DNA of 12,715 nt from a virus (IMGVR_UViG_2565956711_000001), one strand, 5' to 3'; positions 1-12,715 are shown, counted from the stretch's first letter. Notes: generated by a model from the letters alone, not told the origin. Numbers and translations are program-made.

Positions 1-297
1 TCACCATTCCTCACGCCTTGCCGGTGAATCAAACTCCTTTTCTACAAAATTTGCAGGGTTTGTATAAGTTGAAAGCGGTGCAGAACTGAGCGAAATCTCC
101 ACCCCTAAAATATTTAACACTTTGTATAGACGCTCAAAACTTGCTTTTGAAGGATTTGACTCAAGGCGAGCATAAGTCTGCTGGGTTATACCCAACATGG
201 CAGATAATTCTCTTTGAGTTAATCCTTTTGATTTACGAAAACCAATTAGAAGTGGACGTAACTGGCTAAGAAGTCTAACGGGAAAAATAGTATCCAT
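1..297 (-). CDS. XRE-family HTH DNA-binding protein, HipB-like antitoxin/regulator (98 aa); any cognate toxin gene would lie beyond the left window edge
   Basis: Complete ORF with ATG at 295-297 and TGA at 1-3. The translation has a Cro/CI-type helix-turn-helix (GLTQRELSAMLGITQQTYARLESNP) and ends in ...EEW, like the C-terminal Trp of E. coli HipB (recalled from memory). No clear Shine-Dalgarno sequence. Confidence 0.55.
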   Translation of the reverse strand: MDTIFPVRLLSQLRPLLIGFRKSKGLTQRELSAMLGITQQTYARLESNPSKASFERLYKVLNILGVEISLSSAPLSTYTNPANFVEKEFDSPARREEW

Positions 298-1262: not shown

Positions 1263-1595
1263 GTGTCTGAAAAAAATCCGATACCAGAAAGACTTAAGGA
1301 AGCGAGAAGCAGGGCGGGTTTATCACAGCGCTCATTGGGCCTCCTTGTTGGGTTTGATCCCGCTTCGGCTAGCAGTCGTATGAATCATTATGAGAAAGGG
1401 CGCCATGTCCCCGATATTGATACGCTTCGACGGATGGCGGCAGAGTTAAACGTGCCGTTGAACTACTTTTTTTGTGATGATCAGACCACAGCTGAACTTG
1501 CATTACTCATATCCCGGATGACAGAGGAAGAGCGAAGTAATCTTATCGAAGCACTCAAAAGGCATCCAGGCGAAAAGCATGCTGACAAAAAATGA
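1263..1595 (+). CDS. XRE-family (Cro/CI-type) helix-turn-helix transcriptional regulator (110 aa)
   Basis: The translation contains LKEARSRAGLSQRSLGLLVGF...MAAELNVPLNYFF, a typical HTH_XRE fold signature. The only in-frame start is GTG at 1263, preceded by a weak purine-rich stretch; TGA at 1593-1595. GC content is higher than in the neighbouring AT-rich genes. Confidence 0.7.
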   Translation: MSEKNPIPERLKEARSRAGLSQRSLGLLVGFDPASASSRMNHYEKGRHVPDIDTLRRMAAELNVPLNYFFCDDQTTAELALLISRMTEEERSNLIEALKRHPGEKHADKK

Positions 1596-1799: not shown

Positions 1800-2234
1800 T
1801 TATGACGACTTATGTAGTTCCCGAATCATATGGTTGGCCAACAGGCTTTCCACCGGTATAACCGAATTGATTTTTACCGCTTTGACAATTTCTATCAACG
1901 AAAGGGTATTTTGCGCTAATTGGTCTCGCAATTCACTTACTTCAGCCTGCAACTGCTGGTTTCTGGCCAGTAAAGCCTGACGGGTTTTGCGGTTGACGTA
2001 TTGCTGTTTTTCTTTTGGGCGTAGATTCAATGGGCCAAGTTGCTGGTCAACATAGGCAGCAATTAGGCGTTTACGCTCTAGGCTGCTCAGCGTACTTAAA
2101 CCACCGTTAACGATACCTTTTGCCTTGAGCCTAATATGCAGGGCCTTGGCGGAAATAGGGGACTTGTCAAAGCCTTCAACCAGCATCAGTTGTAATTCGT
2201 GCTCAATCAGTGTGTTCAGTTCCTTGCCGCGCAT
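1800..2234 (-). CDS. Small coiled-coil protein, fourth gene of the tri-recombinase operon (GinD-like or TnpC-like accessory protein)
   Basis: Its ATG at 2232-2234 overlaps the TGA (2234-2236) of the upstream 788-aa recombinase in an ATGA arrangement. The ORF track starts one codon earlier at TTG 2237. Coiled-coil segment NQQLQAEVSELRDQLAQN. No catalytic motif recognised. Confidence 0.6.
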   Translation of the reverse strand: MRGKELNTLIEHELQLMLVEGFDKSPISAKALHIRLKAKGIVNGGLSTLSSLERKRLIAAYVDQQLGPLNLRPKEKQQYVNRKTRQALLARNQQLQAEVSELRDQLAQNTLSLIEIVKAVKINSVIPVESLLANHMIRELHKSS

Positions 2235-4600
2235 CAATCATTCTCCTGCATCAATTGTTGGTATTCAAGTGCAAAAAGCTGGGCCAGTGTACGGACTTTG
2301 CCCTCGGTGATTACTCCACCAGACAACACACTCTCAGCAGCAACCAGTTGTTGAGTCTTGGCACGACGATGCCATTGTGCTTGTATTGCCTCGAGTTGCT
2401 GTAACCGTCGTTCGATGTCGGCCAGTCTGGTCTGGTAATCAGGCTGATGTTGAGTAAGTTGGGTCAACTTCGAATGTGCTTGCTGTAAAGCCTGTTTTTT
2501 GGCAATCAGATTTGGTAGCTCATCTATCCGGCCTGTCAGCGTGAAATGTTCACAAAAGGCAGCACTCTGGCATTTCAGTCGATAAGGACATCCCCAGAGG
2601 TTAACTTCCCGCATACAGGAGCCAAATTTCAGCGGATACAGCACGGCATGTCTTGCCACCATGTCAGAGGCTTGCTCTGGTCCTTCTGCGTCGCGGATTT
2701 CTTCAAAGGCGGCAGCAACATCTTCAAAGAGGCCGTTAGCAAATGACGCCTCGACAAACCTGGCTACATCATCCCGATCGTCAAAAGTATGCAGGTTGGC
2801 TTTGATGGTATTGTCCAAAGTCATGTGTTCCGTGACCGCCAGTTGGCCGGTCCGTTTGACGATATCCAGTGGCGTAGCAATGGAGGACGAAGAGGGCGAG
2901 ACAGTTAGTGCTGTCGAAATCGGCTGCAAGGGCACCAACGAGGCGGCTTTTCGCCGTTCTGCAAGCGCCAGATGTTGATAATGCTGATTCTGCGTGATGT
3001 CCACTCGACCCATCAACATTGCCTGTAAGTGGTCAGAGATATCCGCAATAGCAAGAAAGGTATTGATGTTGTGCCGGGGAATGTGGGTACGCATCCGCGT
3101 CGAGGTGCCATCCTCCTCCAGTAATTGATATTTGCTGAATACTGATCCATCAGGCTCAACGTTGCCTAAGAATTTATTCATAAGTGTGTTAGTGAAGGGT
3201 ATCGGTGTAGCCAGCAAAGCCAGTGTGCGCTTTAATGCCAGCGAACCCTTCTCGTGTAGAAATAGCAGATCCTCGTAGTTAACTTGGTAGCGTTTGCCAT
3301 TTTCCATCCAGGCGTGTGTACAGGGTTCGTTGGCATTCGCCAGACCAAATTCGGTCTTAATGTAATGATTGAGAGCAGTCTTGGAATAATAGATAGATTT
3401 GCTGTTTTTCGGGCCTGGTATTTCTTGAACGGGCAGCACACCTCTTTTGCTAAGGGCTTTGGATGTTTTGTCCCGTTGTCCTGCCCGGCCCCGAAAACTT
3501 GAGGTAGTTTGGGTGATGTACTTCACCACATCGTCCAGTTCGACTCGTTCACCGGGCATGTTGCTGATGGCCTGTGGCAGGTAATCAGCAAAAGATTTTG
3601 CCCGTAGATAGGTAAGATGGCTGCGTATTGGTGCGGTCAACATTTTAACGGTACTGAATATACTCTCGACCAGCGGTACTGCCAGCGGTTCTACCCAATG
3701 CGTTCGCTCCCCAGCACCTTTGACACCAACATAACGGATACCAAGAAAATAATCGGGTAATCCCTTGTCCTGAAATCGTTTGCAGATTGCCGGATCATCA
3801 ATCTGGCGTTTAAACAGGGCATCCTGTCTGAGATTAAACGCTTCAATGGAGCGAAAGCCGGTAATAACCAATAACAACAGGCAATTTAACGCGATTTTCT
3901 CAGCATCACTTTCCACCCGCTGGATTAATGCAACTATGTTCAGAAATCCGCGAATGGTAATCAACGCATCTTCACCATCGGTAGTGGTATCAGACAGCTT
4001 GGCCTGCTGTTTCAGCGCCATGGTTTCCCGGGCTTTGCGGGTCAAGTTGGTTTTGTTGGTATACTTCACATCAGAGTTGTATTGCAGTTTAACCAACGTA
4101 AATGTGAAGTGATTGACCAATTTTTGAAGGCTAACGCACCGCCCTTTATAGTTAGCTGTATTGGGGTCACTAGGAGATGAAACGCTACTGAGAAGATCCA
4201 TCGCTCGTTGAATGACAACTGTGCTCAGGTAAGATGGATGGGTCTGTCCTGTCTCATAAAGCATCGCATGGTACCATCGTTTCAGAATCATCAAAGTTGC
4301 CTTTGCCACCGCTGGCGACATACTCCTATTTCCCTGTCGGTAAACCACTACCAGCATAGCTTTCATGAACTGACTATATTCTTTGTCGATGGGCAGATGT
4401 TCTACAATACCTTTGAATCTGTTCATCTCATCAAAACGTAATGTATTTCTGCCGTTCCCTCGCAACCATCCACTTCCCTGGTTACCACTTACCCAGATAT
4501 GATCATTCCATGTTTGGGCAAAATCAGCAGACAGGTGCTGTTCGAACCATTTTTTTTGCTCTTCAATAAAAGCCTGAAAATGCTCAAAGTGATTTTTCAT
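2234..4600 (-). CDS. Tyrosine site-specific recombinase, large (788 aa), third of three tandem recombinases (GinC-like), with a C-terminal Cys4 and coiled-coil extension
   Basis: Box I-like arginine in VITGFRSIE. Box II-like HIPRHNINTFLA ... LMGRVDITQNQHY gives the R-H-R-Y catalytic pattern. C-terminal cluster CMREVNLWGCPYRLKCQSAAFC followed by a Q/L-rich coiled coil. ATG at 4598-4600 is preceded by AGGTGA; the start overlaps the upstream gene by 17 nt. Confidence 0.8.
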   Translation of the reverse strand: MKNHFEHFQAFIEEQKKWFEQHLSADFAQTWNDHIWVSGNQGSGWLRGNGRNTLRFDEMNRFKGIVEHLPIDKEYSQFMKAMLVVVYRQGNRSMSPAVAKATLMILKRWYHAMLYETGQTHPSYLSTVVIQRAMDLLSSVSSPSDPNTANYKGRCVSLQKLVNHFTFTLVKLQYNSDVKYTNKTNLTRKARETMALKQQAKLSDTTTDGEDALITIRGFLNIVALIQRVESDAEKIALNCLLLLVITGFRSIEAFNLRQDALFKRQIDDPAICKRFQDKGLPDYFLGIRYVGVKGAGERTHWVEPLAVPLVESIFSTVKMLTAPIRSHLTYLRAKSFADYLPQAISNMPGERVELDDVVKYITQTTSSFRGRAGQRDKTSKALSKRGVLPVQEIPGPKNSKSIYYSKTALNHYIKTEFGLANANEPCTHAWMENGKRYQVNYEDLLFLHEKGSLALKRTLALLATPIPFTNTLMNKFLGNVEPDGSVFSKYQLLEEDGTSTRMRTHIPRHNINTFLAIADISDHLQAMLMGRVDITQNQHYQHLALAERRKAASLVPLQPISTALTVSPSSSSIATPLDIVKRTGQLAVTEHMTLDNTIKANLHTFDDRDDVARFVEASFANGLFEDVAAAFEEIRDAEGPEQASDMVARHAVLYPLKFGSCMREVNLWGCPYRLKCQSAAFCEHFTLTGRIDELPNLIAKKQALQQAHSKLTQLTQHQPDYQTRLADIERRLQQLEAIQAQWHRRAKTQQLVAAESVLSGGVITEGKVRTLAQLFALEYQQLMQEND

Positions 4601-6149
4601 TGGACTTCACCTGTTCCTGATGAAAACGGCAGCGGGCGATAACAGACTCAATTTCAAACTGTGTGGTTTCATGGATTAAAATGAGCGGATTTCGGGAATT
4701 ACCTACACCGTCTGAAATAGCGATTAGTTCATCGACTTCTTTTTTGACGCATTCAAGTAGAGCCTGATGTTCACCATCCGTAAAAGGGCGATAATACAGA
4801 CAGCCGTAACAAGAACGCACTTCGCTGAAAGGGCATGTACTACTGTTCCTGGAGCAACCACCAATTTTATCATGCAACTCGTCACCAACGAGTCCCACCA
4901 CTGGATGGCCTTTCCAATGTGCTGAGTCGACCAGTTCCCCAGTGAGCATCATAGCCACCATATTTTGCCAAACGGGATTCGACCCAAGCGCTTTAGCACG
5001 GATCAAGGCCAACGCGGGAGTTGCCATAATGTAGTATTTAGCTACGGCAAGAGAGGTGTGCCCCAGTACATGTGCTATCTCTTCAGCGCTAGCACCTTGC
5101 ATCGCCAAAGAGTGCCCAACATTGTGGCGTAAATCAGTGGGTGTAATTGTGGGCAATGCAGCTTCGCCACATGCTACGGCGGCTTGATATTCAGGAGGAC
5201 AGAAATTTAGGATTGCCTGATTAATTGCCTGAGACACATAATGCGGAGCTGAAACGCTGAAATCGAATAGTTTATCTTCGGGGTTTTTCTTATATCTCAC
5301 GGTATAGTTCATAATTAACTCCCCAATTTCTGGGGGGATCGCCAGAAATAACCGCTCTGTCGTCACTCGTCTTTGTTTAGCATATGGTAAAAAAACACTG
5401 TATCGAATCAGACCAGATTCCTGATTTCGTGTATCGATACGAACATCTTTGACCGCCAGCCTAGCGAGTTGTACTGGGCGTGCACCCGTTACATAAGCCA
5501 ACCCAAGGATAGCTGCATTGCGCACTTCGCTGTGACTGAAACTTTTGCCATCGCGTAACAACGAAGCCATTTCAAACAGTCCATTGCAAATCATGTTTTT
5601 TTCAAGAGGGTCAAGAATATTATCGATTTCTTGGTAACCCCCCCAATGTTCGAGATACGGTCGAGGGACGAACTCAAGATCATCGTAATCTTCAAGATTG
5701 AAACCTGGGAATGTTTCAGCACAAAGTATTTTTAATCCGAATAACACGGAATAAAAAGTAGCATTATCAATATCCTCTTTTTCGATAAATAATCGGAGCG
5801 TACTAAGCGAAAACCCACCATGTTCTCGACAATATGAAATGATATTCCTCCAATCAAGGTGCAACGCTGGAAGTTTGGTTGGAAATCTCGTCGATGCATA
5901 TTTGAAACAGATATACTTGTTTAATTTATTTGAGATATAATCTTGATTGAAAACAAGATATCGCCGACTGCCTGAATAATCGAAAGTCCATTTATTTCCT
6001 TTGTTAACAATATATTTATCATCAAACTCCATTGCCGTTTTTAGATAAATTCGATCAGGAATATCGAGTTCAAAGATAGCCTTAGCTAAATCAGGAGGGT
6101 AAACTGAGTTCCCTTCGTCAGATTTTAATGCATTATCAAATGATGTCAT
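4584..6149 (-). CDS. Tyrosine site-specific recombinase (521 aa), second of three tandem recombinases (GinB-like)
   Basis: Box I LGLAYVTGARPVQLARL. Box II TDLRHNVGHSLAMQGASAEEIAHVLGHTSLAVAKYY matches the H-x-x-R ... LGH ... Y pattern. C-terminal Cys cluster CSRNSSTCPFSEVRSCYGC. ATG at 6147-6149 overlaps the upstream gene by 14 nt. Confidence 0.8.
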   Translation of the reverse strand: MTSFDNALKSDEGNSVYPPDLAKAIFELDIPDRIYLKTAMEFDDKYIVNKGNKWTFDYSGSRRYLVFNQDYISNKLNKYICFKYASTRFPTKLPALHLDWRNIISYCREHGGFSLSTLRLFIEKEDIDNATFYSVLFGLKILCAETFPGFNLEDYDDLEFVPRPYLEHWGGYQEIDNILDPLEKNMICNGLFEMASLLRDGKSFSHSEVRNAAILGLAYVTGARPVQLARLAVKDVRIDTRNQESGLIRYSVFLPYAKQRRVTTERLFLAIPPEIGELIMNYTVRYKKNPEDKLFDFSVSAPHYVSQAINQAILNFCPPEYQAAVACGEAALPTITPTDLRHNVGHSLAMQGASAEEIAHVLGHTSLAVAKYYIMATPALALIRAKALGSNPVWQNMVAMMLTGELVDSAHWKGHPVVGLVGDELHDKIGGCSRNSSTCPFSEVRSCYGCLYYRPFTDGEHQALLECVKKEVDELIAISDGVGNSRNPLILIHETTQFEIESVIARCRFHQEQVKSNEKSL

Positions 6150-7530
6150 CGTTATATCTATCCATTATAGTATCTAACGTATTATGTAGCGCTGCATTGT
6201 CTTGAATAATTCGTTGGACATTGGCAGCATTAGCCTGCTCAGACAGGAAACGTTTTGCATATAGATCAGGCATTTGACTTGTCGGACTCCATCCCCCCAT
6301 CAGTCGTAGTTCATCTTTAGCTTCTTCCATTATCCCTGAGAGGGAAGGGACTTCAGCAATAAAGTGTGTTTTATTTTGCTGGCTTTTCAAATATTTTAAA
6401 TGCCATATTTTTTGCAATGTCAAAAAGGCCCAAGTATGTCGGGTTGTATGCGGAGTCAATCGTTGCAACGAGTCAGAGTACAACGGTGATTTGTACTCTG
6501 GATATTGGTTAGTGAAGACCTGATCTATTTTCGAAAAAATAGAATGAACTGATGTGTAGGACAAAGGCTTCGCTGACTGTTGACTCGATGTAAAGATGAA
6601 ATCGTGTTTATCAGTTTTTGGTCGAAGCTTTGCTATATAAATGCTTAAAAAAATATAATCCTGCTTATCGAGCTCCAACACACGATTAGCCCATGCATTT
6701 TTGAGAGATGGCGCATTCTTTCTTGGTTCGTATGCCTCGTCGACAGTTGTCACAATCAAACTAAACTTATCACCTTTTAAATTAGGTTTAATTGAGCTGC
6801 ACTCTAACAACAATAGCTCACCTGTTCGTAAACCATAATTTAACAACAGACGAATAATCAAAAAATTGCGGAACTGAAGATGCCCGGAAGGGAAAGGATT
6901 TAGCGGGTTATGCTTTTGGGCAGAAGAGGGGGTTATTATTCCATACAGGCTGAGCACCATTGCCCCAGACAAACTCTGAAATCCTTGGCTGCTGTGACTA
7001 TGTTGCGAAAATTTGTTTGATGTAAGCGTTCGATAATTCTCCCGGCAAAGCTGTAAACGGGTGTGTAAACGCGAAGCCAAAAGTGATAATGCTTTGGGAG
7101 AGTCATCCCGGTATGCAGGTGATATGTAGGTGTTAATCAAAAAAGAAATGAAATGGATCACAGCACGAACTCTAACTGTATGAGTTAAGCTATTGGCTTT
7201 TGTGACTCTCGTTAAAGACAACACATTTGACTGGACGTTGTGGCCATTTTCTAGATACATCCAAAATGCGGGCATTTCACCGACAGCAATGTCTGGATTG
7301 TGGTCAGATGAATAGAAGCTGTAGCAAAACGAGACACCATACTTTTGCCTCCAGAATTCGTAAAAAAACTTCACAGATTGAAGTGAAGCTGACTGTGTGG
7401 ACAATGAGCGGAAAGCCAAATGGTCAATATGGTACCTAAGGGGATACAGCAACGGCAGAGAGGTTTCCAAGTCCATCAGGATCCATCGCCTTTTACGGCC
7501 TGAGATAACCAACTGCTTTAGTGAATACAC
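6136..7530 (-). CDS. Tyrosine site-specific recombinase (464 aa), first of three tandem recombinases (GinA-like)
   Basis: C-terminal LTPHTTRHTWAFL ... LMGGWSPTSQMPDLYAKRF matches the H-x-x-R ... Y catalytic motifs of the integrase family. GTG start at 7528-7530 is preceded by GAGGT about 7 nt upstream. First gene of the operon, reading away from dif. Confidence 0.8.
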   Translation of the reverse strand: MYSLKQLVISGRKRRWILMDLETSLPLLYPLRYHIDHLAFRSLSTQSASLQSVKFFYEFWRQKYGVSFCYSFYSSDHNPDIAVGEMPAFWMYLENGHNVQSNVLSLTRVTKANSLTHTVRVRAVIHFISFLINTYISPAYRDDSPKALSLLASRLHTRLQLCRENYRTLTSNKFSQHSHSSQGFQSLSGAMVLSLYGIITPSSAQKHNPLNPFPSGHLQFRNFLIIRLLLNYGLRTGELLLLECSSIKPNLKGDKFSLIVTTVDEAYEPRKNAPSLKNAWANRVLELDKQDYIFLSIYIAKLRPKTDKHDFIFTSSQQSAKPLSYTSVHSIFSKIDQVFTNQYPEYKSPLYSDSLQRLTPHTTRHTWAFLTLQKIWHLKYLKSQQNKTHFIAEVPSLSGIMEEAKDELRLMGGWSPTSQMPDLYAKRFLSEQANAANVQRIIQDNAALHNTLDTIMDRYNDDII

Positions 7531-7673
7531 AATATTTACCTCAAAATTATCATGGATATGAAGAGAATGTACTCTGTACCTAATGCAAGAAACGAGAGGG
7601 AGATCAGAAATCCTAACGTATTGATTTATCAGTTAGTGGGAGTGTCATATGAACTTATTTACCACAGTAGGTG

Positions 7674-7701
7674 ATTTAACATAATATACATTATGCGCAC
7701 C
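7674..7701 (-). other. dif: dif chromosome dimer resolution site (XerC/XerD target), exact 28-bp match to the E. coli dif sequence as recalled
   Basis: The plus strand reads ATTTAACATAATATACATTATGCGCACC, the reverse complement of GGTGCGCATAA-TGTATA-TTATGTTAAAT (XerC arm, central region, XerD arm). Confidence 0.85.
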
Positions 7702-7986
7702 AGTGCGCAGATACGCCAGAAATCAGCCTGTAACCATCACCACGGCATTAAACGGTCATCGCTGTTACGTTCTTTCGTCTTCGACCGTCAGCCATCCGTA
7801 TCGCTTCTGAATACGCCGGAATGAAAAACAGGCTTTGCAGTGCCGGGAATTATTATGGCTGACGCCATAATGCTGTTTATGTCCTCGCTTCGCTGCGGGG
7901 CTTCCGGCGCTAAGCGCCTCCCATGCCTGACGGCATAAAAACCGGATATGCCGCCACGTCACCGCATGATACGTCCGTCGCCACCA

Positions 7987-9249
7987 TCACCGCGCGCGCT
8001 CCTCGTGGGAACTCGGTGCGTGCGCGGCGCTGGCGCGCCTGACTTTTTTCGCCTGTAACACGACAAGAATATCCGTCTTGTTCTTCTCGTCAGATGAACT
8101 GGTGAGCCAGCCTTTTGGCAGAAAGCTGAACCCGGTATCGGCGTTTGTGACCTTCGATTCAGCCAGGCCACCCAGCAGAATAATATCCCCGTCAGCCGCT
8201 GATACCTCCGTATTCACCTCGCGCTTAATCAGCGTCGGGCTGTTATTCACGCCCGTATCCGTCTTCGCAAAGCTGGAAAGCTGCTGCTTAATCACAAGGT
8301 CAATATTGTCAGTCCGGATTTGCGGTTTCACGTCGAGGATAACGCCACTAGAGCGATATTCAATCGACTGGATCGGCCTGTTGTCGGCGTAGCTCACCTG
8401 ACCCAGCACCGGAACCTCGTTACCGACTGAAAACGTGGCAGATGCGCCATCCTTCACCCTGAGCCGCGGGGAACTGACGACATGAAAACGACTGTCCGTC
8501 CTGAAAAGCTCATACAGCGCATCAAGAGAGCCTGTATTCACCCGGATAAAGTTATCAAAACCGCCAGACGCGCCAATCTGTATATTCAGCTTGCCGGAAA
8601 GCAGCTTCGCCGCCAGTGCCAGCCCGGAACCGTTACGCTCACTGGTCTGAACCTCAAACACGTAAGCTGCGACAATCACTTCTTCAGAGGCAGTATCAAT
8701 CAGCGGTAAAAGCGTCTGCAACCGCTTAATCTCTGACTTCCGGCCATAATAAACCAGCACATCCCCGGTACGGTTCATAAAGTCCGATGCCGTACCCGCT
8801 ACGGCCGCTTCTGGCGATATCTGCCCGGACGGTAACGAGTTACGCTGACTGTTAAACTGCCCGGTAAACTGTCCGGCCAGAATGTCAGACAGATACGCCA
8901 CGGAACGGAAGCGAGGCCGATAAACAAAGGTCTCCTGCGGCGGCACATACACTTTCGGCGTGAACGGCGCCACGTAGTCAATGCCCTGTTTGTTATAAAT
9001 CGCAATGTTCATATTGCCGAGATAGCGCTTAATAAATGCCCGTTCATCGATATCCGGCGTGATACGGAACGTCACCACCTTATCGGATTTGGCAAGCTCC
9101 GGGTCAAGCATAAACGGCTTATCGAACACCTGAACGTAAATCATGTTCAGCGCCTGCGGCAGCGGAACAGCGTTGAGCTCCAGACTGACGCCCTTCGCCA
9201 TAACCAGCCCCGGAACCAGTAAAAAAAGTAAACCTGTTATCAGCTTCAT
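7987..9249 (-). CDS. Filamentous phage pIV-like outer-membrane secretin (420 aa)
   Basis: N-terminal signal peptide (MKLITGLLFLLVPGLVMA). C-terminal secretin-like segment (VVSSPRLRVKDGASATFSVGNEVPVLG ... GDIILLGGL). Its ATG overlaps the Zot/pI stop in an ATGA arrangement at 9246-9249, and it sits immediately downstream of the pI-like gene as in Ff phages. Confidence 0.8.
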   Translation of the reverse strand: MKLITGLLFLLVPGLVMAKGVSLELNAVPLPQALNMIYVQVFDKPFMLDPELAKSDKVVTFRITPDIDERAFIKRYLGNMNIAIYNKQGIDYVAPFTPKVYVPPQETFVYRPRFRSVAYLSDILAGQFTGQFNSQRNSLPSGQISPEAAVAGTASDFMNRTGDVLVYYGRKSEIKRLQTLLPLIDTASEEVIVAAYVFEVQTSERNGSGLALAAKLLSGKLNIQIGASGGFDNFIRVNTGSLDALYELFRTDSRFHVVSSPRLRVKDGASATFSVGNEVPVLGQVSYADNRPIQSIEYRSSGVILDVKPQIRTDNIDLVIKQQLSSFAKTDTGVNNSPTLIKREVNTEVSAADGDIILLGGLAESKVTNADTGFSFLPKGWLTSSSDEKNKTDILVVLQAKKVRRASAAHAPSSHEERAR

Positions 9250-10280
9250 CGTATCGCCCCTGAATAAACCGTCACCGTTTCGCCGTCGATTTCACCCGTC
9301 ATCATCATGCCGTCAAAGCTGAACTGCGAAGCCGGCTCTATACGCAATCTGCCTGACGTGTCTGCAACAACAACCCATGCCTGACCATCGCGTTTAAGCC
9401 GTCCGGCAAGTCGCCATTTGTCCGACACAACGGGCTTAGCTGGCGCGGCAGGTACAAAAGACGCTGAATTATTTGCGGCGGGTAAATCTTTAGTCTGCTG
9501 TTCAGGCTCTGAATTACCGTTTGACGTGAAAAACCAGAACAGATAAAAAATGGCAATTACCGCCAGAATCAGTAACCCGACAGCTTTAAACCACAACATT
9601 TTAGAACTGAAAATATTCTGACGTTTATCGGTGACAAGTTCCCTTCCCTGCCCGTTCTCATGGGATTTATATAGGGGGAATATCGCCTTGTCATATTTAT
9701 TCTGATAACTGTTCGTCAGATTCGACTTAAACAGTTTGATACCCGTAAATACGTCCACACGGTAGCGGTTATGCAGACCCAGCGCCACATGCTTACTCAT
9801 GCGATACGTTGTTTCCACCCGGTCTTTAATGAATCGCGGAAGGTTGGCAACAGACTGATTCATAACCACTAAATCACAGGTTACGCCCGTTTTTTCATCG
9901 GCAAAATGGCGATGTTCTGCAATGAAAGAGCGATGATTTGCAGGAATCCCTTTATCGTTCTCCCATATGCGCCATGCTTCATCAATACAGATTAAATCCC
10001 CCGGACGGCAGAACGTATCATCCGCAATGCCTGAATCCGTTTTGTAGGGAAAGAAATTATCGTTCTGAACGTCTTCATTCTGAACAAGTAAAATTTCACC
10101 AAGTGATTCCCTGTCTGCCTTTTTAATATCAACGCAGTAATCATAAATACTTTGCGTGGCAAGGCCGTAAATATTACTGACAATGCGACGCCCAGCGATA
10201 CAGGCGGGAATAATGACGCTTGCCACCACTTCGTAAGATTTACCGCTTCCGGGAATGCCCACATACGCAGAAATAGCCAT
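9246..10280 (-). CDS. Zot/pI-family filamentous phage assembly ATPase (344 aa)
   Basis: Walker A motif GIPGSGKS near the N-terminus, Walker B-like LICIDEAW, and a single predicted transmembrane helix (AVGLLILAVIAIFYLFWFF) separating the cytoplasmic and periplasmic parts. This is the architecture of Ff gene I and Zot. Confidence 0.85.
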   Translation of the reverse strand: MAISAYVGIPGSGKSYEVVASVIIPACIAGRRIVSNIYGLATQSIYDYCVDIKKADRESLGEILLVQNEDVQNDNFFPYKTDSGIADDTFCRPGDLICIDEAWRIWENDKGIPANHRSFIAEHRHFADEKTGVTCDLVVMNQSVANLPRFIKDRVETTYRMSKHVALGLHNRYRVDVFTGIKLFKSNLTNSYQNKYDKAIFPLYKSHENGQGRELVTDKRQNIFSSKMLWFKAVGLLILAVIAIFYLFWFFTSNGNSEPEQQTKDLPAANNSASFVPAAPAKPVVSDKWRLAGRLKRDGQAWVVVADTSGRLRIEPASQFSFDGMMMTGEIDGETVTVYSGAIR

Positions 10281-10283
10281 AAA

Positions 10284-10571
10284 TTAACCAATCAAAGGAA
10301 TGCGACGAATAATAAAGCGCGTTAACAATGCTGAAAACATCAGTTTAATCCCTTCCGTGACCATAAACAGATTCACGAAATACCATACGCTATCAGGTAG
10401 TGAGGAAAACAACCCGGCAATATCAACAGATTTTGGCAACAGTGACGCCAGAACCGGAACAAACGCCTGTACGACAAAGTACAGGCCAAAAAACAGAATA
10501 AATTTGACAACCACCGTTCGCAGCACAAAACCCAGCGCCACGTTAAAGGCTGAAACCAGAATACCAAACAT
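10284..10571 (-). CDS. Filamentous phage pVI-like minor coat / membrane protein (95 aa)
   Basis: Small, very hydrophobic protein placed between pIII-like and pI-like genes. Strong Shine-Dalgarno sequence GGAGG about 5 nt upstream of ATG at 10569-10571. Confidence 0.6.
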   Translation of the reverse strand: MFGILVSAFNVALGFVLRTVVVKFILFFGLYFVVQAFVPVLASLLPKSVDIAGLFSSLPDSVWYFVNLFMVTEGIKLMFSALLTRFIIRRIPLIG

Positions 10572-10581
10572 AACGCCTCCG

Positions 10582-12465
10582 TCACGCAGTCAGAATGATA
10601 CGCAGCGAAATAATGCCCCAGATAAGCAGGAATACCGCTTTCAGAAGTGGCCTGATTTTTTCCAGAAGCTCGCAGTGAGAATCAATGGAATATTTATTGT
10701 CCCAGAGTTCGAACGACCATACCGGACACTGAACATCCTTCGATGAAATACTCAGGTTTTTAATGTCCGGCATTAATTCTGTAATTGGCTTGAGAATTTC
10801 CTCACCTGTAGGCGGTTTTTCAAGTTCCGGCGATTTAATGCCGGGGTCTTCGCCTAAATCAACAGAAGTATCGGTATCTGTGCCTGTACCAGGGTGTACA
10901 CCTGTATCCGTTCCCGCACCGGGTCTGGCATTAACCCACGACTGAGGAACGACAACCGGACTATAAAGCAAGCCCTTATCAAGTTTTACGCCAACAGCAT
11001 TAGCCGCAGCCGTCAGTTCAGCCGCCGTAAAAGGTTTATCAAGCGGTATCCCCTGATATCCTTCCTGAACAACAGTCTGACCTGCAAGGCCATTAATAAG
11101 ATTAACCAGCGCAGCCGGGTTTAACTGTTCCTCCGGCTTGAAATCTATATTATCAATAACCTCGCCATTAATTACCTGAGGTAAATTTGATGTATCAAAT
11201 TCTGTATTAAAAAATATCTGGTCTTTAACATCCTGAACATCATTCGTCGTTTTATACACGGCCTTCTCAGGGTGGCAAATACTTTTCCACTGCGTTTTGG
11301 GATTATCAGCCGTACTGCCCGGCGCAGGTACTTTCTCGCTTTTACATAAATCCCATGAGTTTTCAAGCGTAACCGTTGTTGTTCCAACAGATAAAACCAC
11401 AGTTACAATCGATGAATATCCACCAAAATAAGGATTCGGCTTTTCATACTGAAAGTCTTTAACGGAAACCGAATAAACCTTAAAATTTCTTGGCATCCTG
11501 ATATGTAAGTTATTGTCGTCAGACGCCTCATGATAAGTCACATTGGAATGAGAATAACCATTAATCGACTTATAAAGCGCAATCATTACCGGATTATCAC
11601 TGACAAGTACAGCATCGCCCTTTGCATCCCTGATATCAGTCGAATAAGGATATTTAGTACCCTTAACTGACACACGATATACATCATTCGGTAATGGCTG
11701 GCTTATCGGCGGTGGTGCATCAATATTGTAATAGGTTGGCGCAATCTGAACAGGTTTAACCTGATGATTATAAGGGCTTATCGAGTCCTGAATATTCTTC
11801 GCAGAAAAGCCAGTAGCATCAGAGGGCAAATAAACAGCAACAGGGCTTTTAGGTGAAGGTGCAACAGAAGAAGTAACAGTAGCGCCATTGGACAAATTAA
11901 GTAAATAAGTTCCATCATCCTGTTTTATTCCACTTGTAATATATTCAACAGCTTTTGCGCCCTGCTTTAAAGCAAGGTCAGCAACGGAAATAACACCCGC
12001 AGCCTGCCCCAGCAATCCCCATGTTGTCTGTCCGGCAGCCATCATATTACTGCCAAAACTTGAAATACCCGTGGATATCGAATCGTCAATTGTATGCTTC
12101 GCAAGGCCATAAGCAGCCGCGAAAACTGACGTTCCGGTGCAAAGCTGAGGATTACCCACTTTCTCGCCACACATGCGGATTGAATCAAAAACGTCAGGAC
12201 GTTCGCGTATAACCTCCGCAGCGACAGCGATACCCGCGCCCATACCGAGAGAACTGGCACCCGTTGCGAATACACGCCCCGCAGATTGAGAAACAACCTG
12301 AGCTTCACGGGTTTCAACCATTTGCTGAATTACACGTCCAAATCCGTCTGCTGTTACTGCATCAGCATGTACACCGGATGAAACCAGTAAAGACAATATA
12401 GTAATACCTAACTTTCCAGACCCTGAATGACCGCCCAGGCGCATAAAAGCCCCCATAAAAAACAC
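10582..12465 (-). CDS. Filamentous phage pIII-like adsorption / minor coat protein (627 aa by ORF track; true start probably the ATG at 12442-12444)
   Basis: Signal peptide (MRLGGHSGSGKLGITILSLLVSSGVHA), a G/T/D/P-rich linker (PGAGTDTGVHPGTGTDTDTSVDLGEDPG) and a C-terminal hydrophobic anchor (LLKAVFLLIWGIISLRIILTA). Sits between pVIII and pVI. The ORF track start at 12465 is GTG; the ATG at 12442-12444 is preceded by a GGGGG purine run. Confidence 0.65.
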   Translation of the reverse strand: MFFMGAFMRLGGHSGSGKLGITILSLLVSSGVHADAVTADGFGRVIQQMVETREAQVVSQSAGRVFATGASSLGMGAGIAVAAEVIRERPDVFDSIRMCGEKVGNPQLCTGTSVFAAAYGLAKHTIDDSISTGISSFGSNMMAAGQTTWGLLGQAAGVISVADLALKQGAKAVEYITSGIKQDDGTYLLNLSNGATVTSSVAPSPKSPVAVYLPSDATGFSAKNIQDSISPYNHQVKPVQIAPTYYNIDAPPPISQPLPNDVYRVSVKGTKYPYSTDIRDAKGDAVLVSDNPVMIALYKSINGYSHSNVTYHEASDDNNLHIRMPRNFKVYSVSVKDFQYEKPNPYFGGYSSIVTVVLSVGTTTVTLENSWDLCKSEKVPAPGSTADNPKTQWKSICHPEKAVYKTTNDVQDVKDQIFFNTEFDTSNLPQVINGEVIDNIDFKPEEQLNPAALVNLINGLAGQTVVQEGYQGIPLDKPFTAAELTAAANAVGVKLDKGLLYSPVVVPQSWVNARPGAGTDTGVHPGTGTDTDTSVDLGEDPGIKSPELEKPPTGEEILKPITELMPDIKNLSISSKDVQCPVWSFELWDNKYSIDSHCELLEKIRPLLKAVFLLIWGIISLRIILTA

Positions 12466-12498
12466 ATAAAATCAAAAAGATATTGAGCCATAAATATA

Positions 12499-12518
12499 AA
12501 GGGGCTGTTACGCCCCTT
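12499..12518 (-). terminator. Rho-independent terminator hairpin downstream of the major coat gene
   Basis: Perfect 7-bp GC-rich stem (AAGGGGC / GCCCCTT) with a 6-nt loop, 12 nt after the pVIII stop, followed on the minus strand by a T-rich run (TTTATATTTAT). Ff phages have a terminator at this position after gene VIII. Confidence 0.5.
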
Positions 12519-12529
12519 ACCTTTATGAA

Positions 12530-12715
12530 TTAAGCGCCACGAACCATACGCAAAATCCAGCGGACACCCGCAGAACCTGCATACAGAACAATAAGAGAAC
12601 CCGCTACCGCCATAATTCCGGTCAGAACGGAACCGAAATTAACGCTGTTAGTCAGTGGCGTAAGGTCAATACCTTTACCACCAACAACATCACCTTCAGC
12701 AGCAAATACGGCAGG
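12530..12715 (-). CDS. Filamentous phage major coat protein pVIII (partial; N-terminus off-window)
   Basis: Hand translation of the minus strand gives ...PAVFA/AEGDVVGGKGIDLTPLTNSVNFGSVLTGIMAVAGSLIVLYAGSAGVRWILRMVRGA*. It has a signal-peptide cleavage context (FA-AEGD, like the Ff mature N-terminus), a hydrophobic core and a basic C-terminus. TAA at 12530-12532. Not in the ORF track because the start lies outside the window. Confidence 0.7.
   Translation of the reverse strand, partial: PAVFAAEGDVVGGKGIDLTPLTNSVNFGSVLTGIMAVAGSLIVLYAGSAGVRWILRMVRGA

Follow-up and report, generated by a model that had tools for sequence, protein, structure and literature searches.

The 12,715 nucleotides analysed here (the window) end in a set of filamentous phage genes, and the locus raises the question of what kind of element these genes belong to, where it begins and how it became part of an E. 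coli chromosome. The original prediction placed a filamentous prophage with the Ff order pVIII-pIII-pVI-pI-pIV at positions 7987-12715, and profile matches as well as intact open reading frames bear out its identity and gene order. The final 12,715 nt of KI530595.1 (GCA_000488015.1) have exactly the sequence of the window, the right edge of which is the end of that source contig; the attP1 spacer and XerD arm, attP2, the replication genes and a second phage copy were read from identical or near-identical copies outside the window. [quoted passage not shown]

The downstream prophage/host junction

The dif site serves the cell in untangling its chromosomes. A perfect 28-bp E. coli dif (GGTGCGCATAA-TGTATA-TTATGTTAAAT) is located on the minus strand at 7674-7701 and constitutes the downstream junction between prophage and host, matching without a single mismatch, while none of 200 shuffled sequences gave any match. 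Its XerC arm is oriented toward the phage and its XerD arm toward the host island. E. coli EC09, which is free of the phage, shows 100% identity as far as dif, where position 1 is T and not G, and homology with phage-free genomes ends at 7702-7705. Phage DNA begins at 7702, directly abutting dif, and not at 7987 as originally proposed; the site had been overlooked because it lies just outside 7987-12715. With regard to other elements at this locus, an IS inserts 5 bp from the XerC arm of dif, and an island with three recombinases ends about 145 bp from the XerD arm.

The prophage itself is a Xer-exploiting element (IMEX), as evident from the dif junction in the window together with the upstream hybrid site and the inter-copy attP1 present in E. 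coli G5 and some 20 other loci. The phage does have a secretin of its own, but the contrast with CTX-phi-type IMEX phages drawn in the original prediction is misleading, since the prophage sits at dif.

Coat, assembly and export genes

The part of the prophage that lies in the window is its morphogenesis and export half, encoded on the minus strand and consisting of the 3' part of gene VIII, a terminator and genes III, VI, I and IV in tight coupling. Gene VIII is truncated solely by the window/contig end, the other four genes are full length, and frameshifts are absent. The last 61 of the 82 codons of gene VIII (major coat protein; 12530-12715, minus strand), assigned by translation and by the full-length copy in an identical metagenome scaffold, specify a hydrophobic core followed by the basic C-terminus RWILRMVRGA. 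The full 82-aa protein from that scaffold matches phrog_2186 (E=6e-26) and carries the annotation "major capsid protein" in E. coli G5. A hairpin resembling an intrinsic terminator separates genes VIII and III (12499-12518, minus strand) and features a 7-bp stem with five GC pairs and a T-rich tail.

Gene III (10582-12444, minus strand) encodes an adsorption protein of 620 aa (phrog_3942, E=5e-194) that has a signal peptide of cleavable appearance, a linker rich in Thr, Gly and Asp, and a membrane anchor at its C-terminus (residues 599-620). The C-terminal 60-115 residues match four further phage families. No recognisable relatives of the N-terminal receptor-binding part were found, a PDB sequence search with pIII gave no match, and the AlphaFold model of the protein is unusable (mean pLDDT 44). 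A GTG at 12465 constitutes an alternative upstream start for this gene. Gene VI (10284-10571, minus strand) specifies a small hydrophobic minor coat protein of 95 aa (DUF2523, PF10734, E=1e-12; phrog_974, E=6e-28).

The product of gene I (9246-10280, minus strand; 344 aa) is a Zot-family assembly ATPase (PF05707, E=3e-24; phrog_197, E=8e-88). In agreement with the P-loop and single membrane span originally proposed, it exhibits Walker A and B motifs, with GIPGSGKS at residues 8-15 and the hhhhDE sequence LICIDEAW, and a single hydrophobic stretch that covers residues 223-255; Met228 is a possible internal pXI-like start. A Zot enterotoxin in the strict sense of the Vibrio cholerae protein was rejected, as the active C-terminal peptide FCIGRL is absent and only LAGRL (291-295) and SGRL (308-311) occur.

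Gene IV (7987-9249, minus strand) encodes a phage-type outer-membrane secretin of 420 aa with a signal peptide (PF00263, E=2e-24). Residues 4-405 align with positions 5-402 of 403 of phrog_1012, "protein IV of M13" (E=1e-135), f1 pIV (7OFH) is matched with E=1e-12, and the protein combines a secretin domain, a hydrophobic N-terminus and a short N-terminal region with a length in the range expected for pIV-type secretins (about 400-430 aa in total). The pIV secretin that had been claimed for this phage is thereby substantiated by the secretin domain and a full-length family match. The RefSeq name of the gene product, type II secretion GspD, does not apply: with TIGR02517, the GspD equivalog model, the protein reaches 116.9 bits where 351.35 are required, in an alignment confined to the C-terminal secretin domain. 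The Ff-like coupling of the original prediction is reflected in a GGAGG located 5 nt ahead of the gene VI start, in the 3 nt that separate the gene VI stop from the gene I start, and in the ATGA in which the gene IV start overlaps the gene I stop.

The complete prophage unit

The remaining prophage is contained in a metagenome scaffold that agrees with the window at every one of its 12,715 bases and shows a tandem dimer of a 7,669-bp unit in the order hipB-hipA, two phage copies, dif and recombinase island. E. coli G5 also carries a tandem dimer, with a unit of exactly 7,669 bp and 98.7% identity. As anticipated originally, the replication half lies beyond the window edge: upstream in the identical scaffold, a pII-type initiator (PF05144 and PF05155; phrog_702, E=1.5e-104) is encoded together with a pV-like protein (phrog_8473, "single strand DNA binding protein", E=5e-42). 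A lack of such genes, as in a degraded remnant, or frameshifts in the structural genes had been named as findings that would speak against the original prediction; both genes are there and the reading frames are uninterrupted. The Zot-family ATPase, the coat and minor proteins in conserved order, the pII-type initiator and the single-stranded DNA-binding protein identify the element as an inovirus of the Tubulavirales.

The unit comprises ten called genes; two small open reading frames are in reverse orientation. Open reading frames for pVII and pIX were not called in the identical scaffold, where an 89-aa frame takes their place. Some records contain an eleventh, 43-aa frame; the 43-aa frame annotated by RefSeq in the window (7693-7824, plus strand) starts inside dif and is probably spurious. 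Profile searches detected no recombinase or integrase domain in any gene of the unit, and the accessory proteins have no match in Pfam or NCBIfam.

Attachment region and route of integration

The attachment region, read in copies that are 98.7-100% identical and lie outside the window, contains two inverted sites. In attP1 (11+11+11 nt), a perfect XerC arm is followed by an 11-nt spacer, the first three bases of which (TGT) are those of dif, and by the XerD arm TTATGTTGAAA, which matches at 9 of 11 positions and has an inverted partner. That partner belongs to attP2 (11+5+11 nt), which is inverted, has a 5-nt spacer and is located 34 nt from attP1, with a GC hairpin in between. In the predicted minimum free energy structure (-36.6 kcal/mol), the XerC arms of the two sites pair with each other, as do the XerD arms, and the spacer forms a bulge between them. 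The same succession of attP1, hairpin and attP2 occurs in the E. coli D8 prophage, where it is 95.6% identical over 90 bp despite unrelated flanking genes, and, with compensatory changes in the hairpin, in an Arsenophonus prophage the pI of which is 59% identical.

CTX-type elements, with RS1, YpfPhi and CUS-1 as listed members, are characterized by an attP1 with a 12-bp spacer, an inverted attP2 with a 5-7-bp spacer, an exchange catalysed by XerC only and a specificity that is set by the bases adjoining the XerC arm (PMC4246890). The region described here conforms to this type with its two inverted sites, the over-long spacer of attP1, the short spacer of attP2 and their predicted pairing.

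At about 20 loci in other genomes, the upstream junction consists of the host XerC arm, the attP1 spacer and the phage XerD arm, the site between copies is attP1 and the downstream site is a perfect dif. A host-specific A at position 1 is retained in the upstream site only; the dif of Klebsiella starts with A (PMC10132070, Table 8). The sequences of these junctions are in keeping with a XerC-side exchange by which dif is regenerated.

According to the mechanism that we propose, the inverted attP1 and attP2 of the packaged (+) strand would fold around the GC hairpin into a forked, dif-like hairpin, XerC would swap one strand pair with dif, and replication would then finish integration, so that the upstream site would be a hybrid and the downstream one a perfect, regenerated dif (7674-7701). 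Because dif is regenerated, chromosome dimer resolution would be retained and further copies could integrate as tandem arrays. Since the single-stranded (CTX-type) and the double-stranded (VGJ-type) route give the same product, it is only from the architecture of the sites that we infer the former; the predominance of tandem arrays is consistent with irreversible CTX-type integration of single-stranded DNA but is not specific to it.

In VGJ-type integration (PMC4246890), attP1 alone would be used in the double-stranded replicative form, with XerC exchange, resolution by replication, reversibility through XerC and an idle attP2. The perfect XerC arm and the TGT of the attP1 spacer agree with such an exchange between attP1 and dif, which would yield exactly the junctions observed. 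On the other hand, the arms of attP1 are 11 bp apart, and when the site is parsed with a 6-bp spacer, eight mismatches to dif result, of which only two lie outside the XerD arm; such an extended spacer is stated to render the attP1 of CTXphi an unsuitable duplex substrate (PMC4246890). In addition, the attP of VGJ-type phages is a single 29-bp site (PMC5357621, PMC4246890), whereas here an inverted partner is conserved at pairing distance in three phage lineages. We therefore regard a VGJ-type route as very unlikely.

The 6-bp parse, i.e., a XerC arm, the spacer TGTGTG and a degenerate XerD arm as in TLCphi (PMC4246890, PMC5357621), would also be compatible with TLC-type integration, which is XerD-first and involves a phage-encoded Xer activator. 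We attach next to no probability to this reading: the spacer differs from that of dif at two of six positions on the XerD side, while TLC spacers are nearly identical to dif (PMC4246890), searches of the accessory proteins against Pfam and NCBIfam detected no XafT-type domain, and a good XerD arm (9 of 11) with an inverted partner sits 5 bp further along.

The later steps can be outlined as follows. Progeny single-stranded DNA would probably be produced by the pII-type initiator on tandem copies or the replicative form, and the complementary strand would probably be primed within the structured intergenic region. Virions would be assembled by pI at the inner membrane as a tube built of pVIII, with an end capped by pIII and pVI, and would exit via the phage's own pIV secretin without recourse to secretins of the host.

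The intergenic region downstream of gene IV

The phage intergenic region (7702-7986, minus strand) is strongly structured when folded as single-stranded DNA (z=-3.45). By analogy, it probably holds a complementary-strand origin or an ssi-like element with a core at 7761-7942, and perhaps also the packaging signal. The core is about 80% identical to a non-coding segment beside the relaxase operon (ddp1/taxC) of many E. coli plasmids of 30-50 kb. The hairpins are conserved, with two compensatory pairs.

Relationship to known phages

The prophage is a previously undescribed relative of known dif-type phages such as YpfPhi of Yersinia pestis, which is not surprising. CTXphi of Vibrio cholerae is known to lack a secretin gene and to borrow the secretin of its host. 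An own secretin is no distinguishing novelty, however, as the CTX-type phage YpfPhi already has one (PMC10354491, PMC4246890). YpfPhi encodes a Zot-family protein and a 414-aa secretin (PMC10354491); YpfPhi and CUS-1, the latter from E. coli O18:K1, resemble the phage in being dif-integrated without an integrase and CTX-type (PMC4246890), and in combining a Zot-family protein with an own secretin of about 414 aa (PMC10354491). The genomes designated CUS and Ypf are 99% identical to each other at the nucleotide level (PMC7307601).

The E. coli D8 prophage is probably of the CUS-1/YpfPhi type, as judged from its 414-aa secretin and its location next to hipA and dif. Its gene order is that of the window phage, with identities of 62% for pVIII, 57% for pVI, 56% for pIV, 48% for pI and 33% (over 254 aa) for pIII, and 32% for a small open reading frame upstream of gene VIII. 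In contrast, the initiator, the single-stranded DNA-binding protein and the regulatory and accessory genes lack detectable similarity, the N-terminal part of pIII is unrelated and the assembly genes share only about 64% nucleotide identity. Assignment to the same species as YpfPhi/CUS-1 was rejected, given that identities to the D8 prophage range from 32 to 62% for six morphogenesis and coat proteins and that the replication module has no match there.

CTXphi shares the inverted dif-like sites (long-spacer attP1, short-spacer attP2), the dif homology on the XerC side, the regeneration of dif, tandem prophages and a Zot-family pI (PMC4246890). It differs in that its sites are 90 bp apart instead of 34 and that it carries toxin genes; similarity at the protein level is low, and the pI studied here matches the "CTXphi Zot-like" family phrog_1041 with E=3.5e-8, compared with 8e-88 for phrog_197. 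UPPhi901/UPPhi, Lineavirus-like phages of Enterobacterales, likewise form tandem repeats at dif in E. coli, Salmonella, Klebsiella and Citrobacter and have the full Ff-type set of core genes in the same order with reverse accessory frames near dif (PMC7307601). UPPhi proteins are about 70% identical to their IKe and I2-2 counterparts (PMC7307601); among the window phage proteins, pIV alone matches IKe (29% identity), and membership in the UPPhi/IKe type was rejected. The Ff phages (M13/f1/fd) and IKe share the order VIII-III-VI-I-IV, a terminator following gene VIII (in IKe, a stem-loop is annotated at the corresponding VIII/III position), translational coupling, an own secretin of similar size and a structured intergenic region after gene IV, but they are non-integrating, have no dif-like site (PMC7307601) and show minimal sequence similarity.

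None of the phage records in the collection searched is at least 60% identical in pI. The closest deposited phage genomes are those of Dulem virus 52 and Inovirus D_HF5_61, both about 8 kb in size and derived from uncultured inoviruses of gut and saliva. Dulem virus 52 has the same gene order and is 52% identical in pI, 52% in pIV and 50% in pVI, whereas its replication protein lacks detectable similarity; no clustered XerC and XerD arms turned up when its genome was scanned for them. For Inovirus D_HF5_61, identity in pI amounts to 48%.

Distribution and activity

Proteins identical to those of the window are found on 11-102 contigs each, and the corresponding 90% clusters have 225-353 members with names from at least six genera, represented by Klebsiella, Enterobacter, Salmonella, Citrobacter, Serratia and E. 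coli. Copies with very different flanking genes are 99-100% identical to the phage part of the window. Among complete E. coli genomes the phage is rare (3-5 of 5,426). The identity of proteins across genera can be taken as a sign of recent spread.

The prophage could instead be a defective, vertically inherited remnant that does not produce phage, with frames intact merely because it was acquired recently. Its rarity would be in line with this, decay does occur (IS66 insertions are present within copies in another genome), and recombination has removed attP1 from the upstream copy of the identical scaffold and fused this copy to an IS end, i.e., that array has been rearranged. However, apart from gene VIII, which is cut by the edge, the genes of the window are full length, their products recur unchanged on the many other contigs, both copies in the identical scaffold are complete and include a replication module, and the near-identity of copies amid differing flanking genes argues for ongoing horizontal transfer. 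Moreover, following the CTXphi paradigm (PMC4246890), loss of the upstream Xer site should still allow rolling-circle production from the tandem pair. A remnant is thus highly improbable, and the copy in the window may be active.

A segment shared with IS elements

The attachment and cargo end of the phage has the order XerD arm of attP1, GC hairpin, inverted attP2, one cargo gene and an element of about 40 bp, CGCGAAGCG...GTTCGGGG...CCCGAAC. ISKpn21-like IS elements on chromosomes as well as plasmids feature both flanking segments, 92-97% identical, with Shedu, SIR2 or STM4504-family genes between them, and DNA matching the attP region of the phage is present in 963 of 5,426 complete E. coli genomes. 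Recombination between the phage and an IS of this kind via the shared hairpin has already taken place in the metagenome scaffold that matches the window throughout. It is conceivable, albeit rather unlikely, that this end is an exchangeable module common to the phage and to dif-targeting IS elements that carry defence genes. The shared segments might bind Xer and thereby tether the IS to dif, or they might serve as sites at which cargo is exchanged by recombination. If they were functional, dif would be a cassette-exchange hub joining inoviruses, IS elements and defence genes.

Implications

The importance of the finding is modest: an unnamed yet widespread inovirus lineage joins the short list of enterobacterial phages that hijack XerCD. 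Recombination has brought together in this lineage an attachment hairpin of the CTX type, a self-sufficient channel for export and a replication module that is unrelated. As the phage has its own secretin and needs only the dif/Xer system, which is universally conserved, it makes few demands on its host, which may explain the occurrence of identical proteins and of 99-100% identical DNA copies in different genera. The RefSeq names "type II secretion system protein GspD" and "zonular occludens toxin" may lead to its genes being misread as host secretion or toxin genes. At this locus dif serves two kinds of mobile elements, a Xer-dependent phage and an IS, which provides context for studies of the plasticity of the terminus region.

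Phage Structural and Assembly Genes

The genes of the prophage lie on the minus strand of the window. Gene VIII, encoding the major coat protein, is represented by its last 61 codons (12530-12715), and is followed by a stem-loop with a T-rich tail (12499-12518, minus strand). From the promoter and terminator scan this terminator alone was used, the nine promoter sites found being no excess over shuffled sequences (8.3). Downstream lie a gene III-like ORF for 620 residues (10582-12444; phrog_3942, E = 5e-194), a pVI-type gene for a DUF2523 protein of 95 residues (10284-10571), the gene for the Zot-family protein pI (344 residues, 9246-10280; PF05707) and that for a pIV secretin of 420 residues (7987-9249), which belongs to PF00263 and matches phrog_1012 ("protein IV of M13", E = 1e-135) over its full length. 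A GGAGG sequence precedes gene VI, genes VI and I are 3 nt apart, and genes I and IV overlap by ATGA. These profile matches and junctions bear out the original prediction of a pVIII-pIII-pVI-pI-pIV module with Ff-like coupling, including its own pIV secretin. An Rfam scan of the window returned nothing at gathering scores.

The gene III-like product has a signal peptide and a C-terminal anchor as well as a linker rich in Thr, Gly and Asp. Searches with it against Pfam, NCBIfam and PDB sequences gave no match, and its N-terminal two thirds had no recognizable relatives in them. An AlphaFold2 model derived from an alignment of 12 sequences scored low (mean pLDDT 44, pTM 0.28). In agreement with the topology proposed for the Zot-family protein, a P-loop plus one transmembrane span, pI contains a Walker A motif (GIPGSGKS), an hhhhDE motif and a single membrane span at residues 223-255. 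The C-terminal periplasmic part carries LAGRL (291-295) and SGRL (308-311), which have only the GRL core in common with FCIGRL of Vibrio cholerae Zot; as sequence motifs, they provide no evidence of a toxin function.

The secretin can be aligned with f1 pIV (7OFH), has the size of pIV and scores 117 bits against the GspD equivalog model with its cut-off of 351 bits; by profile score it is a secretin of the phage type, far under that cut-off. Following the Ff paradigm, secretin and Zot-family ATPase should constitute a self-contained export machine.

The Complete Phage Unit

The window is identical to the final 12,715 nt of contig KI530595.1 (assembly GCA_000488015.1), and the sequence stops within gene VIII because this contig ends there. 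The whole window recurs with 100% identity in a metagenome scaffold (L018/L019), which extends beyond it in the order autotransporter, hipB, hipA, phage copy 1, phage copy 2, dif (the chromosomal XerC/XerD site) and recombinase island. In Escherichia coli G5, a 98.7% identical tandem dimer consists of two mutually identical units of exactly 7,669 bp. Each unit comprises two small reverse ORFs (88 and 62 residues), a pII-type initiator (PF05144 and PF05155; phrog_702, E = 1.5e-104), a 96-residue single-stranded DNA-binding protein (phrog_8473), an 89-residue ORF and the genes for pVIII, pIII, pVI, pI and pIV. The replication functions that the original prediction had placed beyond the window edge, a pII-type initiator and a pV-like protein, are thus both present in the scaffold identical to the window. 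With these genes in place and no frameshift among the phage genes of the window, neither of the observations that would have refuted the original prediction was made. Letter-for-letter copies of the pIII, pI and pIV sequences occur on 11-102 other contigs. Neither the 88- nor the 62-residue ORF had a Pfam or NCBIfam match that would have allowed a repressor to be assigned; both searches came back empty.

Prophage Junction at dif

Phage DNA extends beyond the secretin gene, as the 285 nt from its stop codon to position 7702, overlooked in the original prediction, also belong to the phage. Directly beyond follows a perfect 28-bp E. coli dif (7674-7701), for which 200 shuffles gave no comparable match. 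Window positions 1-7702/7705 are 99.9-100% identical to phage-free E. coli chromosomes, which diverge afterwards; this locates the prophage at dif, within the terminus region and adjoining hipBA. In phage-free E. coli EC09, the dif differs solely in the outermost base of the XerC arm, T instead of G.

The intergenic region 7702-7986 is predicted to fold strongly as single-stranded DNA (z = -3.45). Many E. coli plasmids of 30-50 kb hold a non-coding segment about 80% identical to the core of this region (7761-7942); close inspection of one plasmid placed the segment between the ddp1/taxC relaxase operon and hicB, and a shorter stretch is matched in some larger plasmids. Three hairpins are conserved between phage and plasmid segments, with compensatory changes in two base pairs; a GCGAAGC mini-hairpin is part of the segment. 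By analogy, the core can be read as a single-strand initiation or complementary-strand origin element common to the phage and conjugative plasmids. A 43-residue "hypothetical protein" annotated on the plus strand at 7693-7824 (RefSeq WP_262162528.1 in E. coli G5) begins at an ATG within the XerC arm of dif and crosses this structured region; it is probably an annotation artefact.

Attachment Region and Integration Route

On the coding (+) strand, the first dif-like site of the phage, attP1, reads GGTGCGCATAA-TGTGTGACTCG-TTATGTTGAAA, with arms spaced by 11 bp, and is followed by a 34-nt GC hairpin. On the 3' side of the hairpin, CTTTAGCATAA-CGTCA-TTATGCGCATT represents the second site, attP2, in inverted orientation; its sequence on the opposite strand is AATGCGCATAA-TGACG-TTATGCTAAAG. 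Definitions of the classes of integrative mobile elements exploiting Xer (IMEX) were drawn from PMC4246890 and PMC5357621. In CTX-type elements, attP1 with a spacer of about 12 bp and attP2 with one of 5-7 bp are mutually inverted and pair in the single-stranded genome (PMC4246890). In sequence, the attachment region of the phage matches this published definition, and its predicted single-stranded fold (-36.6 kcal/mol) pairs the two XerC arms with each other, and likewise the two XerD arms, while the spacer bulges out. The first three bases of the attP1 spacer, TGT, are those of dif; such likeness of spacer bases to dif is said to decide CTXphi specificity (PMC4246890).

The same junction pattern was found in about 20 loci of other genomes: the upstream site consists of the host XerC arm, the attP1 spacer and the phage XerD arm, sites between copies correspond to attP1, and the downstream site is a perfect dif. 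In hosts whose dif starts with A, as documented for Klebsiella (PMC10132070, Table 8), the A is kept in the upstream site only and the downstream dif bears the G of the phage. This distribution places the crossover at the border between XerC arm and spacer and shows that the phage contributed the XerC arm of the dif at 7674-7701.

Identical junction products would result from a VGJ-type exchange of double-stranded DNA through attP1 alone. This route is rated lower given the 11-bp distance between the attP1 arms and the conservation of the inverted partner site: together with the hairpin it is kept in a second E. coli prophage, that of strain D8 (95.6% identity over 90 bp with unrelated neighbours), and it also occurs in an Arsenophonus prophage with compensatory changes in the hairpin. 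Integration of the TLC type is unlikely, as the spacer does not resemble dif on the XerD side and none of the accessory proteins has a match in Pfam or NCBIfam. The best-supported model is a Xer-dependent inovirus of the CTX type that brings its own secretin.

Relatives and Distribution

When the phage part was compared by megablast with 50,697 phage records, no match and hence no close deposited phage genome was found; the best match of pI among phage records, to the uncultured "Dulem virus 52", is 52% identical. Affiliation with the UPPhi viruses, which are approximately 70% identical to IKe (PMC7307601), was rejected upon direct comparison with IKe, in which only the phage pIV matches, at 29%. 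The nearest described kind is YpfPhi/CUS-1, which integrates at dif, is listed as CTX-type (PMC4246890) and encodes Zot and a 414-residue secretin (PMC10354491). The D8 prophage, probably of this kind, agrees with the phage studied here in gene order and attP, with identities of 62% for pVIII, 57% for pVI, 56% for pIV, 48% for pI, 33% over part of the length for pIII and 32% for the small ORF before gene VIII, whereas its replication and regulatory genes are unrelated. The phage is thus a mosaic within an already known class. The original prediction had set it apart from IMEX phages that borrow a host secretin. Possession of a secretin stands; as a distinguishing feature it does not, as it is already documented for YpfPhi/CUS-1 and the prophage itself resides at dif. 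While right on gene identities, the prediction was incomplete and partly misleading on what is special about this phage.

Among complete E. coli genomes the phage is rare (3-5 of 5,426). Host range was taken from exact-protein look-ups, as a scan of species-representative genomes with pI was of little use and retrieved only two distant loci, in Arsenophonus and Providencia. Outside this set the phage is widespread: proteins identical to those of the window and clusters at ≥90% identity have named sources in Klebsiella, Enterobacter, Salmonella, Citrobacter, Serratia and E. coli. Arrays are often dimers or trimers. In GCA_053003625.1, IS66-family insertions lie inside array copies, one of them splitting the region between genes VIII and III, and a neighbouring copy has a 406-residue secretin and additional accessory ORFs, which shows decay and heterogeneity within arrays.

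The dif-integrated inovirus of strain D8 (L028, 6100-15500) is far commoner. It encodes a 414-residue secretin, a 341-residue Zot, a 350-residue Rep of the II/X family as well as HTH and DUF6953 accessory genes, and is probably of the CUS-1/YpfPhi type. Each of its proteins occurs on at least 983 contigs, with E. coli, Salmonella, Klebsiella, Citrobacter and Yersinia enterocolitica as named sources.

The Recombinase Island

To the left of dif, three tyrosine-recombinase-like genes (464, 521 and 788 residues) and an overlapping fourth gene of 145 residues occupy positions 1800-7530 on the minus strand. The first two encode PF00589 domains and the third has a weak integrase match only. The layout is that of the ginABCD operon delimiting GInt islands (PMC5385486), and there is also a resemblance to SE elements (PMC10214605). 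About 145 bp separate the end of the operon from the XerD arm of dif; the idea that the island directly abuts this arm was dropped, as an island-free genome shows weak conservation over some 85 bp adjoining dif. In EC09, the operon heads an island of about 38 kb with defence-like cargo (NACHT, AlbA, SEC-C and nuclease-plus-UvrD genes). In the window, the cargo of the recombinase island starts in a stretch of low GC content (positions 1-1595, 34-39%) with small HTH regulators of 98 residues (1-297, minus strand) and 110 residues (1263-1595, plus strand; PF12844) and a 186-residue ORF without family. Parts of the window, mostly of the recombinase island, are matched in 411 of the 5,426 complete E. 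coli genomes.

ISKpn21-Like Elements at dif

In phage-free relatives, the opposite flank of dif is occupied by an ISKpn21-like insertion sequence of 2.76 kb. It carries a defence gene as passenger, lies 5 bp away from the XerC arm and has duplicated its ATATT target. Targeting of dif by such elements is already known (PMC10132070; bioRxiv 10.1101/2022.12.17.520857), and a word search of both papers found no mention of phage. ISKpn21-like (IS1202-family) elements and segments shared with the phage were located in EC09 (L002, 15702-18462), in loci L026 (~6000-8650) and L025 (~3950-6640) and in the metagenome scaffold (L019, 3903-3971 and 4366-4407). The elements reside at this position next to dif or on plasmids, with Shedu, SIR2 or STM4504/CBY_0614 as passengers. 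At the passenger end, 38-67 bp are 92-97% identical to the XerD arm of phage attP1, the hairpin and the inverted attP2. A second shared element of 35-42 bp (CGCGAAGCGGTTCGGGGTTCTGTGACACCCGAAC), likewise 92-97% identical, is located in the phage between the 88- and 62-residue ORFs. Mostly via these short segments, a query spanning attP to gene VIII found matches in 963 of the 5,426 genomes, 519 places being on plasmids.

In the metagenome scaffold, in the part past the right edge of the window, the upstream phage copy is without attP1 (L018, 3880-3975). After the hipA flank and ATATT come about 55 bp of an IS terminal repeat, a variant hairpin and attP2, such that this copy is joined to the IS end through the hairpin common to both. 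This arrangement fits recombination through the common hairpin between an incoming phage and an already resident ISKpn21-like element such as that of EC09. If so, the transposase gene of the IS would have been lost in the event, along with its Shedu passenger and the upstream Xer site.
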